Source of the DNA: Escherichia phage vB_EcoP_DE5
Reading direction: 5' to 3' (one strand)
DNA length: 64,000 bases
Sequence record: MW741821.1
Each line of letters begins with the position of its first letter. Positions within the stretch are counted from its first letter, which is position 1. This document shows, one piece after another, positions 25,609-41,454 of the stretch. A program made the translations under genes and the position numbers. The notes under the pieces were generated by a model. It was not told where the DNA came from. It searched no databases and saw only the letters and a program-made list of their open reading frames with translations.

Positions 25609-25920
25609 CTATTTAAGTTTGAGGCTAATGTTAAGGTGCATACATGCTCTGTTCTGTACAGCAGCATAACTTCTACCGAGCATGTCAGCCATTCTCTGAA
25701 TAGACATGAACCCAGCATTACGGATAAGGAACTGGTCCTCTTCTTCAGACCATTTAACTCGGATTGAAGCTCTTGATATGCCGAATTTAGTGCAAGCTGT
25801 GTTAACAGCATTCTCCGTTACATTCATAATCTGAGCTACTTCTTGAACCGAGTACTCTTTGATTAGTCTCCGAAGATTTTCAATCTGCATCGGAGTCCAT
25901 ATAGTTCTTCGTGCTTTCAT
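25609..25920 (-). CDS. DNA-binding protein with two tandem Myb/SANT-like helix-turn-helix repeats
   Basis: 103 aa; two W-[TS]-x-E-E-D...L repeats (RRTIWTPMQIENLRRL... and VKWSEEEDQFLIRNAG...). Confidence 0.5.
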   Translation of the reverse strand: MKARRTIWTPMQIENLRRLIKEYSVQEVAQIMNVTENAVNTACTKFGISRASIRVKWSEEEDQFLIRNAGFMSIQRMADMLGRSYAAVQNRACMHLNISLKLK

Positions 25921-35709: not shown

Positions 35710-36087
35710 CTATGGATTTACACATTGACCTAAACCGGACTCAATTTCATTCATGGACTCATCAAAGAGCGTCAACGATGAGCGCATCAAGTGATCTATC
35801 GTGATTTGTTTACCGGTAGTTTCATTTACCAGCAGAATAGCTTTGTTATCTGATTGCACATGATCAAAATCATTTACATGCAAAATAATAACTTTAGGTG
35901 ACTGTTTACCAGTTTCATAGTTTTCTATCAAATAGGTGCACTGTAAACTGTCAACCGTAGCAGGGGAGAACATTGCAGCCTTAACACTACCCATAGACGA
36001 TAGGAGAACGCCCAGCAGGAGAACGACAAGGAAGAAGCCCACGAATACTTTTACTACAAATTTGATAATACCCATGATAATAATCAC
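35710..36087 (-). CDS. membrane protein
   Basis: 125 aa; N-terminal transmembrane segment. Confidence 0.5.
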   Translation of the reverse strand: MIIIMGIIKFVVKVFVGFFLVVLLLGVLLSSMGSVKAAMFSPATVDSLQCTYLIENYETGKQSPKVIILHVNDFDHVQSDNKAILLVNETTGKQITIDHLMRSSLTLFDESMNEIESGLGQCVNP

Positions 36088-36172
36088 CTATAGTTAGAGA
36101 ATATAAGAATAAAGCATATCAGCGACGAATAACGCCACTGTAACGACGAACAAGCAACGCCAAAAATAATCA

Positions 36173-36448
36173 CTATTCATCGTTGCTATTCTCGCCAAAA
36201 AATGCTACGCTAATCTGTTCCACTTCTTCCAGCGACAGGAGAATCCCGCGTTGGGCTAAATACTTCCCAACAGTTAGATAATCTTGCACTAAACAGACAA
36301 TAGGAAAGCGTATATTTTGAATCTCACCTTTGGAAAGAAAAGACAAATATCCAACGTCGATTGATTCATCAAAGGACAATGTAACGCCACCGTAATTATG
36401 CGTATCAATTAACGCAATAGTTTCATTTCCCATTGGTATCATCCCCAA
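36173..36448 (-). CDS. hypothetical protein
   Basis: 91 aa ORF. Confidence 0.45.
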   Translation of the reverse strand: MGMIPMGNETIALIDTHNYGGVTLSFDESIDVGYLSFLSKGEIQNIRFPIVCLVQDYLTVGKYLAQRGILLSLEEVEQISVAFFGENSNDE

Positions 36449-36689
36449 TCAGACCATGATTAAGCAGGTTAGCCAGCGACAAATCACCGTCAATATAGAT
36501 TGATCTGAAATCATCGCGGGTAATTTCGAAATCAGCAAAGGCTAGCCAGTCTTTAAGAGGCTGATATTCCATCCTGCAAAAAGTGATAACAGGCAAGATT
36601 ATCTGACCATCAAGTGTATTAAACATGATAGAGCTTCCACCAACAAAACAAGAAAAACCGTTAGATAATTTAACTTCTTTAATAGCCAT
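36423..36689 (-). CDS. hypothetical protein
   Basis: 88 aa ORF. Confidence 0.45.
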   Translation of the reverse strand: MAIKEVKLSNGFSCFVGGSSIMFNTLDGQIILPVITFCRMEYQPLKDWLAFADFEITRDDFRSIYIDGDLSLANLLNHGLIGDDTNGK

Positions 36690-36715
36690 TTTTTACACTC
36701 CCAAAAATAGATTAT

Positions 36716-37207
36716 TTACTTACTAGCCTTAATACAGTTGGCTAAATTAACGTGAACAGTATAAACAGCATTATCAGCATTATTGTAAACAGTGGTGGCG
36801 ATCATCGACTCATTAACTGGGCCATAACTCACTAGATTGGTTACAGCTTTAACATCTTCGTAACGTTGTACAGTGCCATAAGTCACCATATCCGCATCGT
36901 TATCAGTACGCTTGAGAACTAGATCACTGTTAGGCTGATTATCTAACGTTTTAGATTGAAAGAGAACGCCATCATTAGTAACGTTGCTAAATTTCATCTT
37001 TAGCACGGTATTATTGCCGTCACTATCCGCACCGTTGCAAATCATCCAACCCTTATTGATGGAACTAGAGAAGACACTAGCCGCATCAGTTGCAGGAGCA
37101 GGACTAGCGATAGCCTTATCAGAAAGAGATGTGACCAGTGCACTAACACCGATAGCTGCAACCAGTGCATAACTTGCCAGATTAACTACCTGCATTGCTT
37201 TAGCCAT
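36716..37207 (-). CDS. secreted protein with N-terminal signal peptide
   Basis: 163 aa; hydrophobic h-region then Ser/Ala-rich stretch; two Cys that could form a disulfide. Confidence 0.55.
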   Translation of the reverse strand: MAKAMQVVNLASYALVAAIGVSALVTSLSDKAIASPAPATDAASVFSSSINKGWMICNGADSDGNNTVLKMKFSNVTNDGVLFQSKTLDNQPNSDLVLKRTDNDADMVTYGTVQRYEDVKAVTNLVSYGPVNESMIATTVYNNADNAVYTVHVNLANCIKASK

Positions 37208-37421
37208 TTCGTTATTCCTTAGATAGATTCAATCAACTGTCATCAACTATATAATAAAGGAAAAGGCTGTCAACCATCTATTTTCTAACTTTCTTGCATC
37301 CTCCTGAAAACTAAAGGAATTTAATTTGCTAAACTTTCCATACTCAGAGAATCAGCTTACTTCTTATTGTTACTTTATAACACTACGGGTAACAGACCAA
37401 CAGACCAGGACAAACGGGGAT

Positions 37422-37812
37422 ACAACAACCGCAGGACAGACCACGGGGAAACATAGCAAGATAGTGCGGTAATAATATACCACTTAAATAATCATCAACT
37501 CATAAAAGAAAAGACCATTCGCTACGCTCATAAAGGCACGCTGAAAAAGAAAAGATTAAAAGAAATACAATCATCCACTTAATTAATACATACATCATTA
37601 TTGCACTCATAATCATTACTATTGAAACTATTTACATTCAAACTATGGGGGATGTGGGCTATTACTTATGGGTATTATTAGCCTCTTATGGTAGTGCCTG
37701 TACAGTGCTAGCCTTTCTCTCACTCTCTAAAGGGGAACTAAATAAACGGGTAGCTAATGAATAGGATGGTATACACGGGGAAAGAATAACGGGGAGTAGG
37801 CACGGGGAAACG
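37422..37812. repeat. five copies of (C)ACGGGGA(AA) in two clusters
   Basis: Copies near 37423, 37443, 37775, 37790, 37803; ACGGGGAAAC exact twice; track ORF 37686-37910 here is probably spurious. Confidence 0.45.
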
Positions 37813-37953
37813 CTGGAACGTGGAAGGAGGTGTAAAGGCATTGCCAATAACCCTTTTTTAAATGAGGACTCCCCCCTTTTAGGAAACGCGCGGGAAGCGC
37901 CTAGCCCCACTCGGTCAAATCAGAATTTTAAACTCTTATATATAAGGTTAAGT

Positions 37954-38127
37954 ATGAATCTAATTAAAGTATTTAGACGGATGAAGTGTAAGCACAATTA
38001 CTATCTTCTTCGTAAAGCTTACGGGGATGAAAGAATACATGGTCTCTACCTATCAACATGGAAGTGTAAGGAATGTGGTAAGTTGAGATTCAGTACATGG
38101 GTTGACAGACCAGTCAGTAGGCCTTAA
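37954..38127 (+). CDS. small zinc-ribbon protein
   Basis: 57 aa hand-translated (MNLIKVFRRMKCKHNYY...WKCKECGKL...); first plus-strand gene of right arm. Confidence 0.4.
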   Translation: MNLIKVFRRMKCKHNYYLLRKAYGDERIHGLYLSTWKCKECGKLRFSTWVDRPVSRP

Positions 38128-38434
38128 TGGAAATAATCTTTTGGTTAGTAATAGTCTTCTGTTTATTCATCTGCTTCTCTATAGCAAGATGTATCAAGTA
38201 TGACTAATGACATGGCCTTTATGAAGTCCCCTTTATGACATGCCCTTTACTTCAGCGTACACGGGTTGTTGGTATGAGGTGGCCTTTACGGGTTGGATAT
38301 GACTAGCCCTTTATACTTTTATTCAGAGGATAGAATATGAGGTTTTTAAAAGAACTACACTCCTTGATTTATAAGGACATAGTGTACTCAGTATCCCGCA
38401 ATGCATGGTTCTACCAAAAAGGTGGCAACGGTGA

Positions 38435-38725
38435 ATGGGTAGATTGAATCTTATTCAGAGGAGAAGGATTATGAATTTAATATTAGACTTTTTATCAGAG
38501 ATGGTGCCTCGGTTTAGAACGGAGACATACGCTTTCGTAATCAACAGTGACTCTGAAGATGGGATGGAAGCTACGTGCCTAGGGCGTCTTGTTGATTTAG
38601 ATGATGAAACAGATTTCGATATTACAATTGATGTGAGTAGCTTAGGTTGGCTCTTCTTCAGAGCATTCCGCACTTACAAAGTAGAAACATATAAAGATTA
38701 CAGCAAGGGAGAGACAGATGAATAA
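38435..38725 (+). CDS. acidic hypothetical protein
   Basis: 96 aa; alternative start at 38471 also has an SD. Confidence 0.45.
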   Translation: MGRLNLIQRRRIMNLILDFLSEMVPRFRTETYAFVINSDSEDGMEATCLGRLVDLDDETDFDITIDVSSLGWLFFRAFRTYKVETYKDYSKGETDE

Positions 38726-39287
38726 TTTAATCAAAGCGATGGACCTTAACGAGTATAATTCACAGCTGTGTCGCTCTGGCTGTAGTTTACAGCATTTAGA
38801 AACTATGGGAAACATCTCAGGACTAGCTGTACAAGATTTGTATAGTGGAAGTATTCTTAAACCAAATATTACGGAGAACAAAAACATGTTAGATTTGATT
38901 CATACTACTCGCCCTGATTCTAAAACTAAAACACAACCATCTACTCTGGAAGTAGTTGAATATGAATCTACTAAACATGATCACCTCCCTGACTATGCTC
39001 GTGCAATGATTGAGATGATCGAAGAAGCTGAATATGAAATGCTCCATGATTACATTACCTCCAAAGATGAATGGCATCGTGATGTTCGCATCGAAGAGGA
39101 TGGTACAGAAACAATTACGTGGATTCACAAGAGTGAGTTAGTAGACGACGCACTGCGAGACTACGAAAAATTTTTGGTCGATGGCTCTATTCTTTTAGAG
39201 GAAGAGAAGGGTGTAGAACTTCCGTGGGAGGGTGAGATAGTTACTTTAGGTAAGATGTTTAACCTGTCCGTCAGTAATTGTAAGTAA
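38718..39287 (+). CDS. hypothetical protein
   Basis: 189 aa acidic ORF. Confidence 0.5.
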   Translation: MNNLIKAMDLNEYNSQLCRSGCSLQHLETMGNISGLAVQDLYSGSILKPNITENKNMLDLIHTTRPDSKTKTQPSTLEVVEYESTKHDHLPDYARAMIEMIEEAEYEMLHDYITSKDEWHRDVRIEEDGTETITWIHKSELVDDALRDYEKFLVDGSILLEEEKGVELPWEGEIVTLGKMFNLSVSNCK

Positions 39288-39292
39288 TGTTT

Positions 39293-39316
39293 GCCTCCCT
39301 TGGGAGGCTTTTTGTG
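39293..39316 (+). terminator. Rho-independent terminator
   Basis: Hairpin GCCUCCC-UU-GGGAGGC followed by UUUUUGUG. Confidence 0.55.
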
Positions 39317-39343
39317 TTGTTGATAATGTAGAAGGAGTATAAA

Positions 39344-39817
39344 ATGTTTGGAGAAAACGGAGAACTCACGCCTGCACAGGTAGCTGAGATTACAGGAAGA
39401 TTACCCGGAGTAACGGAAGAACTTGAAGGCCGTGGTATGAACCCAAGCAATGGGAAGTTTCAAAAGGGAAATAAATTCGGACGACCCAAAGGTAGTAGAG
39501 GTAAACTGACACAATTAATGTTGGACCGTGTTGCTGCAAGTCATTTGTCTCCTGATGAAGTGTTAATTCAAATTTACGAAGATCCTAATATTCCACCTGA
39601 TCTTAGATTCAAGGCTGCATCAAAAGTTGCAGATCTGGTATATCCTAAGGCGGCCTCTGTTGAAGTTAAGATTGAGGAAGAGAATGTAATCAACGAAGAA
39701 TCATTGAATGCACAAATCAAGGACTTCTTGACTGGAGCACTTGGTATCGATGTTATGCCTCCAGAAGAAGACAACTCTGAGGACGCTGAAAAGGGGGAGG
39801 AAGCGGACGAGAGTTAA
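39344..39817 (+). CDS. putative terminase small subunit (by position)
   Basis: 157 aa immediately upstream of terminase large subunit; no diagnostic motif. Confidence 0.4.
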   Translation: MFGENGELTPAQVAEITGRLPGVTEELEGRGMNPSNGKFQKGNKFGRPKGSRGKLTQLMLDRVAASHLSPDEVLIQIYEDPNIPPDLRFKAASKVADLVYPKAASVEVKIEEENVINEESLNAQIKDFLTGALGIDVMPPEEDNSEDAEKGEEADES

Positions 39818-39912
39818 TTAAAGGAAGACAGGATAGCGTATTCTGTAAGATGAGAGGGGGAGGTTCTTTGACGAAGGGACTTTCCCTTTTCTATTTTTAA
39901 ACTGGAGGAAGT

Positions 39913-41454
39913 ATGTCATTAGATAAACAAATTTATGAAGCTCTAACTGGTAACAACCTTAGTGTAGACGAAAAGAAAGCACTATTGAATATGTTGAAAG
40001 AGCGTGACCAATGGAGGAAGTATAATAGGATTTTGTCTTTCAAGGCGTATGACTTCCAAAAGAAATTTTATGCAGCAGGATTGAAGCATCGCTTTAGGTT
40101 CTTGTGTGCAGCGAACCGTGTTGGTAAATCTTATAGCGAGGCATACGAGTTTGCTTGTCATGTCACAGGTCGCTACCCAACTTGGTGGACAGGATATAAA
40201 TTTAAAAGACCTATCTTAGCATGGGCAGTTGGTATTACAGGGGATTCCACAAGGAAGGTATTGCAAAAGGAATTGTTTGGTACACCTATCGGAAAGGATA
40301 CAAATTTATTAGGGACAGGTGTCATTCCTCGTGATGCTATCGTCATTGATACGATAGAACGAGATGGTAACAAACTTCAAATCGTACAAATCAAACATCA
40401 AAATGAGAGAGGAGAGTTTGACGGTTTAAGTACATTAGAATTCCGTTCAACCCAACAGGGTGAACACACATTGATGGGTGCAACAGTTGACTACATTTGG
40501 TTAGACGAAGAAGATCCATACGAGTCTATGGCTATATTCGCACAGTGCGTCACACGTACACTCACAACTAAAGGTCTAGTTACAATTACAGCTACACCAG
40601 AGAACGGTTTAACTGAACTGGTAGATAAATTTATGAAAGGTGAAGGAGATGAGAGCACAGGTTCTCTATATTTCCAGAATGCCTCTTGGTGGGATGCTCA
40701 TGCAGACCTAGGTGGACATATCACTGACCAAGATATAAAAGATATGACTGAAGGTATTCCAGCGTGGCAGTTAGAGATGCGTTCGAAAGGTATGCCATTG
40801 TTAGGAAGTGGTTTGATTTATGATGTATCGGATGACACAATTAAATGTGAACCATTCGAAATTCCTGATACGTGGAAACGTGTCTGTGCAATTGATATTG
40901 GTATTGATCACCCAACTGCTGCTGTTTGGACAGCTTACGATGCAAACACGGATACTATCTATGTTTACGACTCATATAAAGAAGGTGGCTTTACTCCAGT
41001 GTATCATGCTCCAGCTATTAATGGTCGTGGTCAGTGGATTCCTGTCATCCTACCGCACGATGCGGACAATATTGAGAAAGGTAGCGGTTCATCTGTTGCT
41101 CAATTCTATAAGAATGCAGGAGTTAACGTACAGAGTGAGACCTTCTACAACAAAATTGGAATGGATGGTAAAAAGAACTTCTTTGTAGAACCGGGAATCA
41201 CAGATATCCGAGAAAGAATGATGAGTGGACGCTTTAAAGTCTTTAACACAGCCGCTAACGCTAAGCTATTCGAAGAGAAAGCTAGATATCACCGTAAGGT
41301 TGGTAAGATTATTAAAGAACATGATGACTTAATGGATGCAATGCGCTATTCAGCGTGCTCTGTTACACATCGTGGTCGCTCTAAGCATGACGTTAGCTAC
41401 GGAAGTGCTTCTTTGTATGAGGCAAACGTAAGCAGATGGAATCAGAGTTACTAA
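39913..41454 (+). CDS. terminase large subunit
   Basis: 513 aa; Walker A-like AANRVGKS, acidic nuclease-type residues downstream, precedes portal. Confidence 0.8.
   Translation: MSLDKQIYEALTGNNLSVDEKKALLNMLKERDQWRKYNRILSFKAYDFQKKFYAAGLKHRFRFLCAANRVGKSYSEAYEFACHVTGRYPTWWTGYKFKRPILAWAVGITGDSTRKVLQKELFGTPIGKDTNLLGTGVIPRDAIVIDTIERDGNKLQIVQIKHQNERGEFDGLSTLEFRSTQQGEHTLMGATVDYIWLDEEDPYESMAIFAQCVTRTLTTKGLVTITATPENGLTELVDKFMKGEGDESTGSLYFQNASWWDAHADLGGHITDQDIKDMTEGIPAWQLEMRSKGMPLLGSGLIYDVSDDTIKCEPFEIPDTWKRVCAIDIGIDHPTAAVWTAYDANTDTIYVYDSYKEGGFTPVYHAPAINGRGQWIPVILPHDADNIEKGSGSSVAQFYKNAGVNVQSETFYNKIGMDGKKNFFVEPGITDIRERMMSGRFKVFNTAANAKLFEEKARYHRKVGKIIKEHDDLMDAMRYSACSVTHRGRSKHDVSYGSASLYEANVSRWNQSY

Follow-up and report, generated by a model that had tools for sequence, protein, structure and literature searches.

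Results

A clustered word in and beside a terminal repeat

Escherichia phage vB_EcoP_DE5 (MW741821.1; the 64,000 nucleotides that we analyzed are called the window) carries a stretch, 37208–37953, in which we found no conserved open reading frame (ORF) and in which the word ACGGGGA recurs in clusters. About 100 Kuravirus (phiEco32-like, Gordonclarkvirinae) phages, which infect Escherichia or Shigella, match this region at 74–92% identity. An earlier note on this DNA had set the repeats upstream of a plus-strand late arm. Comparison with relatives places them instead at the physical terminus of the genome, with one cluster inside the direct terminal repeat (DTR), and the genes directly to the right have been described as early (PMC4281155).

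The DTR was located by homology. Positions 37710–37902 match the mapped DTR of related phages over its full length, with the same boundaries. On one side of them are the early genes of the right end, on the minus strand, and on the other the plus-strand genes of the left end, which are followed by those for the small (TerS) and large (TerL) terminase subunits. In the linear record of phiEco32, the first 193 bases are repeated at the end; the alignment pairs base 1 of this record (AGCCTTTCTCTCAC...) with 37710 and its final base (...GCGAGCGGCT) with 37902. The annotated 193-bp DTR of YF01, which was read directly on nanopore reads (PMC9965538), has identical boundaries, and mapped DTRs of this length are reported for phiEco32, YF01, and Paul (PMC9965538). 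The element is the same as the 193-bp DTR known from the Kuraviruses phiEco32, SU10, Paul, and YF01. As judged from the alignments to the phiEco32 and YF01 ends, the window is a circularly collapsed Kuravirus genome that holds a single DTR copy, and by homology the left edge of this copy, 37710, corresponds to the left genome end and the right edge, 37902, to the right genome end.

The features of the locus are collected in Table 1. All six copies of ACGGGGA in the window are on the plus strand; the minus strand contains none, nor does the plus strand outside 37414–38027. Although this count is unremarkable for the window as a whole (6 versus 2.79 expected; at least 6 in 3 of 100 shuffles), the copies are concentrated in 1.1 kb (37208–38336), where ~0.01 would be expected from the remaining window. 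The core ACGGG occurs 10 times in these 1.1 kb, against 0.40 expected (Poisson p ~2e-11), and this local enrichment rules out chance as the cause of the clustering. Weaker copies, ACGGGTA and ACGGGTT, enlarge the set, and CACGGGGAAAC is present as an exact twofold repeat at 37442–37452 and 37801–37811. The earlier note had listed five copies in two clusters and the exact repeat, all of which we recovered; its positions were right except for the first copy, which it put at about 37423, 9 bp from the actual position, 37414, so that the span it gave, 37422–37812, cuts this copy.

Table 1. Repeat clusters, terminal repeat, and neighboring features in the window (a slash marks a DTR boundary)
Feature	Position	Strand	Description
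Cluster A	37385–37449	+	ACGGGTA at 37385, ACGGGGA at 37414 and 37443; spacing 29 + 29 bp; unique right-end DNA
Cluster B	37746–37808	+	In the DTR: ACGGGTA at 37746, a degenerate copy at ~37762–37768, ACGGGGA at 37775, 37789, and 37802
Cluster C	38206–38313	+	Five TATGACATGCCCTTTA-like units, one every 14 bp, and ACGGGTT at 38261 and 38288; right of the DTR, beyond the first small gene
Sixth ACGGGGA	38021–38027	+	Within the 57-aa Zn-ribbon-like gene 37954–38127; codons Tyr-Gly-Asp
DTR, 193 bp	37710–37902	+	Placed by homology to the phiEco32 and YF01 ends
Left DTR boundary, CAGTGCT/AGCCTTTC	37703–37717	+	Predicted cleavage site making the left genome end
Right DTR boundary, AAGCGCCT/AGCCCCAC	37895–37910	+	Predicted cleavage site making the right genome end; placed from the homologous record ends of phiEco32, YF01, and NC-B
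Most conserved DTR block, CCCTTTTTTAAATGAGGACTCCCCCCTTTTAGGAAACGCGC	37851–37893	+	Near-identical in all lineages
Early promoter, sigma-70 type	37246–37273	-	TTGACA-N16-TATAGT; predicted for the first minus-strand gene
Putative TerS	39344–39817	+	Candidate array reader; here a weak DUF5681 match only
TerL	39913–41454	+	99–100% identical to annotated Kuravirus TerL; ~40% to LUZ24 TerL

Between cluster A and the left edge of the DTR are 266 bp. Counted from that edge, cluster B has YGGG cores starting at +38, +67, +81, and +94, with the degenerate copy at +54. The word ACAGACC(A), which occurs four times (37392, 37400, 37436, and 38104), is interleaved with cluster A, where AGACCA immediately precedes ACGGGG; the AGACCAACGGG junction is also retained in the class III relatives described below. 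The ACGGGGA at 38021 is probably coincidental, since it is coding and is lost in the most divergent lineage, class III, which carries AGAGGTGAT in its place.

The core, its lattice, and its distance from the genome end are conserved

We compared 17 genomes and contigs, the window included, and sorted them into four classes by their usual motif. Class I (the window, phiEco32, SGF2, YF01, Ptacy1479, and others) has DTRs of 192–193 bp and the word ACGGGGA; class Ib (Bas92 and Bas93) has a 193-bp DTR and ACGGGA or ACGGGGC; class II (4E8, EP335, and KBNP1711) has DTRs of 205–206 bp and ACGGGG followed by any base; and class III (NC-B, MLP3, 101114BS3, TH42, PAS59, and L039) has DTRs of 249–280 bp and A[CT]GGGTA[GA]. 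The DTR of PAS59 is a 275-bp annotated repeat that was not fully read.

The motif search in related phages that the earlier note had proposed as a check shows an A-Y-GGG core kept across all 17. The search pattern left the base before Y free, yet it is A in 36 of 37 distinct copies; we therefore take A-Y-G-G-G as the invariant core, with G or T and next an A as the usual continuation. Within the DTR, YGGG starts fall at +38, +52/54 (degenerate in the window), +67/68, +81–84, +94–98, +110, +126–128, and +141, a lattice of ~14.5 bp in which steps of 29 bp are frequent. Successive spacings in cluster B are 29, 14, and 13 bp in class I; 14, 16, 16, 12, and 31–32 bp in class II; and 29, 28, and 15 bp in class III. 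Those in cluster A are 29 and 29 bp in class I; 30, 27, and 14–15 bp in class II; and either 28, 30, and 30 bp or 15, 13, 30, and 30 bp in class III.

The array is anchored at the left genome end. In 17 of 17 genomes, across DTR lengths of 192–280 bp, 37 bp lie between the left end and the first YGGG of the DTR, which starts at +38; the next strong one begins at +67 (+68 in class II). This register is fixed despite the fact that DTR nucleotides 1–37 are only 54–59% identical between classes. Among 15 distinct sequences, ACGGG at columns 37–41 is an island of invariance: the mean top-base fraction is 0.96 over columns 33–41, against 0.71 and 0.68 in the two flanks, and columns 37–41 together with the cut-site bases at columns 2–8 are the main invariant islands in the first 66 DTR columns. 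The right end has no fixed register, as the last copy stands anywhere from 78 to 139 bp from the right DTR boundary and the promoter downstream of it, depending on the relative.

Copy number varies more in cluster A than in cluster B. Nearly all relatives have 1–6 cluster A copies, spaced 14–16 or 27–31 bp apart, and the cluster is nearly lost in Bas92 and Bas93; every genome compared retains 4–6 copies in cluster B. The DTR length classes (192–193, 205–206, 249–250, and 280 bp) differ in steps of roughly whole 14–15-bp repeat units, and TH42 has a 31-bp insertion with one additional CATGGGTA copy. Motif flavor shifts in concert across all three clusters (class I has ACGGGGA, Bas92 and Bas93 have ACGGGA, and class III has A[CT]GGGTA), and the C-to-T change of class III is also seen in cluster C.

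The 57-aa CxxH...CxxC gene that begins right of the DTR occurs as two alleles, ~94–96% and ~54–65% identical to that of the window, which do not track the DTR motif class. The independence of gene allele and motif class indicates mosaic exchange at the very edge of the DTR. A metagenome scan with a 15-mer from the DTR returned mostly chance matches and only two Kuravirus contigs.

Boundaries and internal features of the DTR

Both DTR boundaries carry the local pattern ..AGnGnCT/RGSC.., which is kept in 12 relatives; the terminase may thus cut at one shared motif that occurs twice at a distance of 193 bp. GCCT-TC at DTR columns 2–8 is invariant. The terminase, which is as conserved as the most conserved block of the DTR (37851–37893), may use this block as its core recognition element. 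Conservation at DTR nucleotides ~130–170 has been noted (PMC9965538), as has a CCCTTTTTTA-N10-CCCTTTTTTA repeat in the DTR (PMC4281155).

As single-stranded DNA, the DTR with its borders (37690–37925) folds worse than 200 of 200 dinucleotide shuffles (z = +2.64), and the top strand is purine-rich at 37750–37849 (GC skew +0.51, AT skew +0.37). Poor folding and a purine-rich strand would fit a segment that anneals in single-stranded form during concatemer formation.

ORF 37686–37910 (minus strand, 74 aa), which the earlier note had suspected of not being real, is interrupted by stops in 7 of 10 relatives compared. Since it spans both DTR boundaries, it would also be broken in virion DNA, and we reject it as a gene.

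Neighboring promoters and genes

Early sigma-70 promoters have been described at both ends of SU10 and phiEco32 (PMC4281155). In the window, cluster A begins 112 bp upstream of the -35 hexamer of the early promoter at 37246–37273, a distance that is 112–125 bp in most relatives. Directly right of the DTR, GGTCAAATCAGAATTTTAAACTCTTATATATAAGG (37912–37946) is conserved in every class and, from its sequence, is probably the left-end early promoter (-35-like GTCAAA, 17-nt spacer, TATATA); a scan with the promoter consensus did not call this element.

TerS of YF01 was assigned by profile similarity to PaP3 TerS (PMC9965538). The protein is nearly invariant across motif classes, which makes co-variation between TerS and motif flavor uninformative as a test. 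A single-sequence AlphaFold model of TerS was poor (pLDDT 59), and a PDB sequence search with TerS gave no matches. The earlier note had named a Myb-like protein with two helix-turn-helix motifs (25609–25920, minus strand) as a possible binder. This suggestion did not hold up, since protein identity and motif flavor do not co-vary: phiEco32 has an identical motif and a protein only 64% identical, and KBNP1711 has the class II flavor, yet its protein is 98% identical.

Two database names in the neighborhood look spurious. The 125-aa product of 35710–36087 (minus strand), a "terminase" in PHROGs and phiEco32, has a hydrophobic, membrane-like N terminus, and the 189-aa product of 38718–39287 (plus strand), encoded upstream of TerS and named "ABC transporter," is very acidic and has no Pfam support.

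Several other sequence elements were observed around the array. TAAAGG, a second repeat family, is on the plus strand at 37255, 37311, 37531, 37729, and 37834, left of or inside the DTR, and its complement, CCTTTA, is in the five TATGACATGCCCTTTA-like units right of the DTR, such that the orientation flips across the right DTR boundary. The TATGACATGCCCTTTA-like cluster sits where SU10 reportedly has a gp36-type late promoter, between its CDS 3 and 4. In the AT-rich spacer, an A-rich block, GCTGAAAAAGAAAAGATTAAAAGAAA (37539–37565), is kept in all classes and is tandemly duplicated in Bas92. The element ...ATTGAAACTATTTACATTCAAACTATGGGGG... (37600–37680), 64 bp left of the DTR, is also conserved in all classes, at distances that vary from 64 to 123 bp.

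Discussion

What might an array with a fixed distance to one genome end do? We favor, tentatively and in the knowledge that it may well prove wrong, the reading that it is a phased protein-docking lattice for processing or packaging at the junction between genome copies. In replicating DNA, the copies are joined head to tail in a concatemer through a single DTR, so that clusters A and B flank the left-end cut site. The lattice would then be a multivalent docking platform for an oligomeric DNA-binding protein, for which the small terminase ring is the leading candidate and a phage end-binding factor the alternative. The bound protein could mark the junction and, together with the cut-site motif ..AGnGnCT/RGSC.., place the left-end cut 37 bp ahead of the first site, and would in this way take part in DTR processing and packaging. 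We favor this reading because the left-end register and the lattice are kept while the spacers drift, and because the array is confined to the junction in one orientation; protein binding, the identity of the binder, and packaging as the process are inferred. The restriction of the motif to this region and to one strand in 64 kb shows that it does not serve generally as a promoter, primase, or regulatory word. The first copy stands beside the predicted cut, at the same 37-bp spacing in every genome compared, as a terminase site might, and the near-invariance of TerS fits a reader of the invariant AYGGG core.

Several points weigh against this reading. The invariance of TerS does not account for the class-specific flavors, and the TerS assignment itself comes from published profile similarity only. 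The terminase could instead read the near-invariant DTR block at 37851–37893. Cluster A is largely lost in Bas92 and Bas93, so this cluster, at least, is dispensable. The concerted change of flavor could stem from repeat homogenization without any protein, and the analogy to phage T7 discussed below would transfer architecture, not mechanism.

A more specific version of the docking lattice, which we consider speculative and rather unlikely, is that it acts as a molecular ruler. A ring- or filament-forming protein (TerS or an end-binding factor) seated on sites 14.5 bp apart would set the DTR cut 37 bp from the first site, and the flavors would reflect co-evolution with a determinant of cross-packaging among relatives.

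Among the alternatives, it is possible, although improbable, that the repeats are regulator sites through which a phage or host factor activates or shuts off early transcription from the terminal promoters. After injection, each linear end would have an array 100–180 bp upstream of an inward-facing early promoter, given the steady distance of cluster A from its -35 hexamer, the location of cluster B 102–166 bp upstream of the conserved GGTCAAAT...TATATA element right of the DTR, and the promoters described at both ends of SU10 and phiEco32. However, cluster B is anchored to the left DTR edge and not to its promoter, given its variable distance to the right boundary, the two arrays are oriented oppositely relative to their promoters, and Bas92 and Bas93 hold 1–2 cluster A copies despite a replaced neighboring promoter region. 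Plain conservation of spacer sequence explains the steady distance between cluster A and its promoter, and the Myb-like protein, the only regulator candidate that we tested, shows no co-variation with motif flavor. A slightly less probable alternative is that the repeats are replication-origin iterons, with an initiator binding clusters A and B and melting the AT-rich 200 bp between them. Like the iterons of the lambda origin and of iteron plasmids, the repeats are direct, share one orientation, and flank AT-rich DNA (GC 0.24 at 37550–37649), and the cumulative GC skew has its minimum here. This minimum is uninformative, since it coincides with the gene-strand switch and the physical ends. Moreover, origin iterons are conserved repeats of 17–22 bp near an initiator gene, whereas the core here is 5–7 bp with variable spacers and is locked to the genome end; no initiator-like family was found among eight flanking proteins, and DnaA boxes are not enriched (one match at 2 mismatches). 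An origin would also be split in virion DNA, with cluster B at both ends and cluster A at the right end only, and the invariant 37-bp register has no role in such a model. The proposal of the earlier note that this is a binding-site array for a regulator or initiator thus stands insofar as these are conserved, oriented, short, non-coding repeats of a protein-binding kind; the motif is atypical of origin iterons in repeat length and in having neither an initiator-like gene among the flanking genes nor enriched DnaA boxes.

Two further explanations do without a dedicated DNA-binding protein of this sort. It is possible that the repeats have no specific reader and are a degenerate tandem repeat, kept because the DTR would have to be strand-asymmetric, purine-rich, and hairpin-free for its 3′ single-stranded tails to anneal into concatemers, with the flavors arising by slippage and gene conversion. 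The poor folding of the DTR, its skews, and the change of its length by repeat units are all as this explanation would have them, but the spacers drift around AYGGG cores that stay unchanged and in place, a sign that selection acts on the word rather than on composition. Moreover, cluster A repeats both word and lattice 266 bp outside the DTR, where annealing of ends plays no part. We consider this unlikely, slightly more so than an origin. Least of all do we expect the array to be a set of transcription pause sites that stall RNA polymerase at the junction, an idea suggested by its resemblance to the E. coli consensus elemental pause (a YG step with G-rich sequence 10–11 nt upstream). Pausing of T7 RNA polymerase at the junction between genome copies aids T7 packaging. 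Here the Y-G step is invariant, and the 13-bp spacing places a G at -10/-11 of the next copy (37775–37808); in addition, class II and III relatives carry, after cluster A and facing the DTR, TATAATGTA(A/T)G, which resembles a gp36-dependent promoter. This element is absent from the window and class I, however, and the gp36 consensus, with 1 mismatch allowed, is matched no more often than chance predicts (19 versus 20.8 expected). We found no evidence for DTR transcription, and the class III spacings, mostly 28–30 bp, do not supply the -10 G.

The TATAATGTA(A/T)G element was seen immediately right of cluster A in EP335, 4E8, PAS59, TH42, L031, and L032 and is close to the gp36-dependent promoter consensus, tAATGTAtA (PMC4281155). 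Were it active, late transcription would run across the junction, a situation reminiscent of T7, which has a promoter upstream of its right-end repeat. The AYGGG word itself is unrelated to this consensus, and the sole nearby match (37755, 1 mismatch) is at chance frequency. We also rejected several structural and sequence-signal explanations. A G-quadruplex is implausible on inspection and would not be conserved, as the G-tracts of class I are 9–26 nt apart and class III has only GGG tracts 25–28 nt apart. A hairpin or cruciform is excluded by the poor folding of the DTR, and Chi-like or primase sites by the absence of the word from the rest of the genome and its lack of likeness to Chi. No Rfam match was found at E ≤ 1 in 36000–40000.

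The closest parallel to the array is in T7. There, three copies of CCTAAAG (at 17, 41, and 60) are found in the 160-bp terminal repeat, and a further 12, between 175 and 332, keep strictly to a 13-bp lattice; 19 of 20 CCTAAAG-like matches are on the top strand only, and the match at 478–479 (CCTATAG) is palindromic and reads on both strands. These arrays, SRL and SRR, were reportedly named by Dunn and Studier in 1983, and we know of no established function for them. As in T7, the Kuravirus array consists of a ~7-bp word on one strand, inside the terminal repeat and in the adjoining unique DNA (clusters A and C), on a regular lattice (13 bp in T7, 14–15 bp here; individual spacings are 13, 14, and 29 bp in the window and 12–16 or 27–32 bp in relatives). 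Both phages are described as packaging from concatemers joined via one repeat copy (PMC9965538). However, the words CCTAAAG and AYGGGKA are unrelated, such that T7 is an analog in architecture only. In T7, the main array sits directly next to the repeat; here it is internal to the DTR, and ~270 bp separate the DTR from the outer cluster. The terminases are not close relatives. The DTR is already known for Kuravirus, and the phased repeat array associated with it belongs to a known kind. Neither PMC9965538 nor PMC4281155 describes the AYGGG lattice, the +38 register, or the class flavors; the primary phiEco32 papers were not covered, and a prior description is possible. A literature search on the T7 arrays and on the motif string found nothing relevant.

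Repeated words also surround the packaging cuts of phages with other strategies. At P1 pac, TGATCA/G hexamers, in 4 + 3 copies flanking the cut, are recognized collectively by the terminase. The likeness is a short repeated word clustered around a packaging cut, recognized there and only predicted to be here; unlike the array, P1 pac serves headful packaging, its hexamers are Dam sites, and it has neither a terminal-repeat duplication nor a fixed lattice. At the R sites of lambda cosB and at SPP1 pacL and pacR, repeated sites are bound by an oligomeric small terminase, and the large subunit is set at a distance. These too are several repeated sites adjoining a cut, although the sites in lambda and SPP1 are fewer, follow no 14.5-bp lattice, and are longer (in lambda, ~16 bp), and binding here is a prediction. 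General background is given in PMC7672466. The DTR of LUZ24 was considered as a second analog, but its CCYWGGGG-type words are quasi-palindromic and on both strands, which makes the analogy weak. Salmonella phage pSal-SNUABM-01, a distant relative whose TerL is 61% identical, begins with 1.7 kb of non-coding DNA in which ACGTGTGG and CCGTGTGGAAAC words at 880–1000 are reminiscent of CACGGGGAAAC; we did not use it as a comparator, since its ends are unmapped.

For vB_EcoP_DE5, our analysis places the physical ends of the genome at 37710 and 37902 and removes a spurious ORF. More broadly, phages with short DTRs (T7-like, LUZ24-like, and Kuravirus) must recognize the junction between genome copies, cut twice at a fixed distance, and duplicate the repeat, and to our knowledge the DNA signals for junction recognition and cutting are poorly defined outside T3 and T7. 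Kuravirus offers natural variation that T7 lacks: three to four motif flavors and DTRs of 192–280 bp, combined with an invariant 37-bp offset. With the +38 register, DTR lengths that vary unit by unit, and naturally differing flavors, the function of such arrays becomes experimentally approachable. The analysis also marks sequences to keep when therapeutic Kuravirus genomes are engineered or rebooted. If the lattice does act as a ruler, the same logic would also cover the T7 arrays and like arrays in other short-DTR phages.

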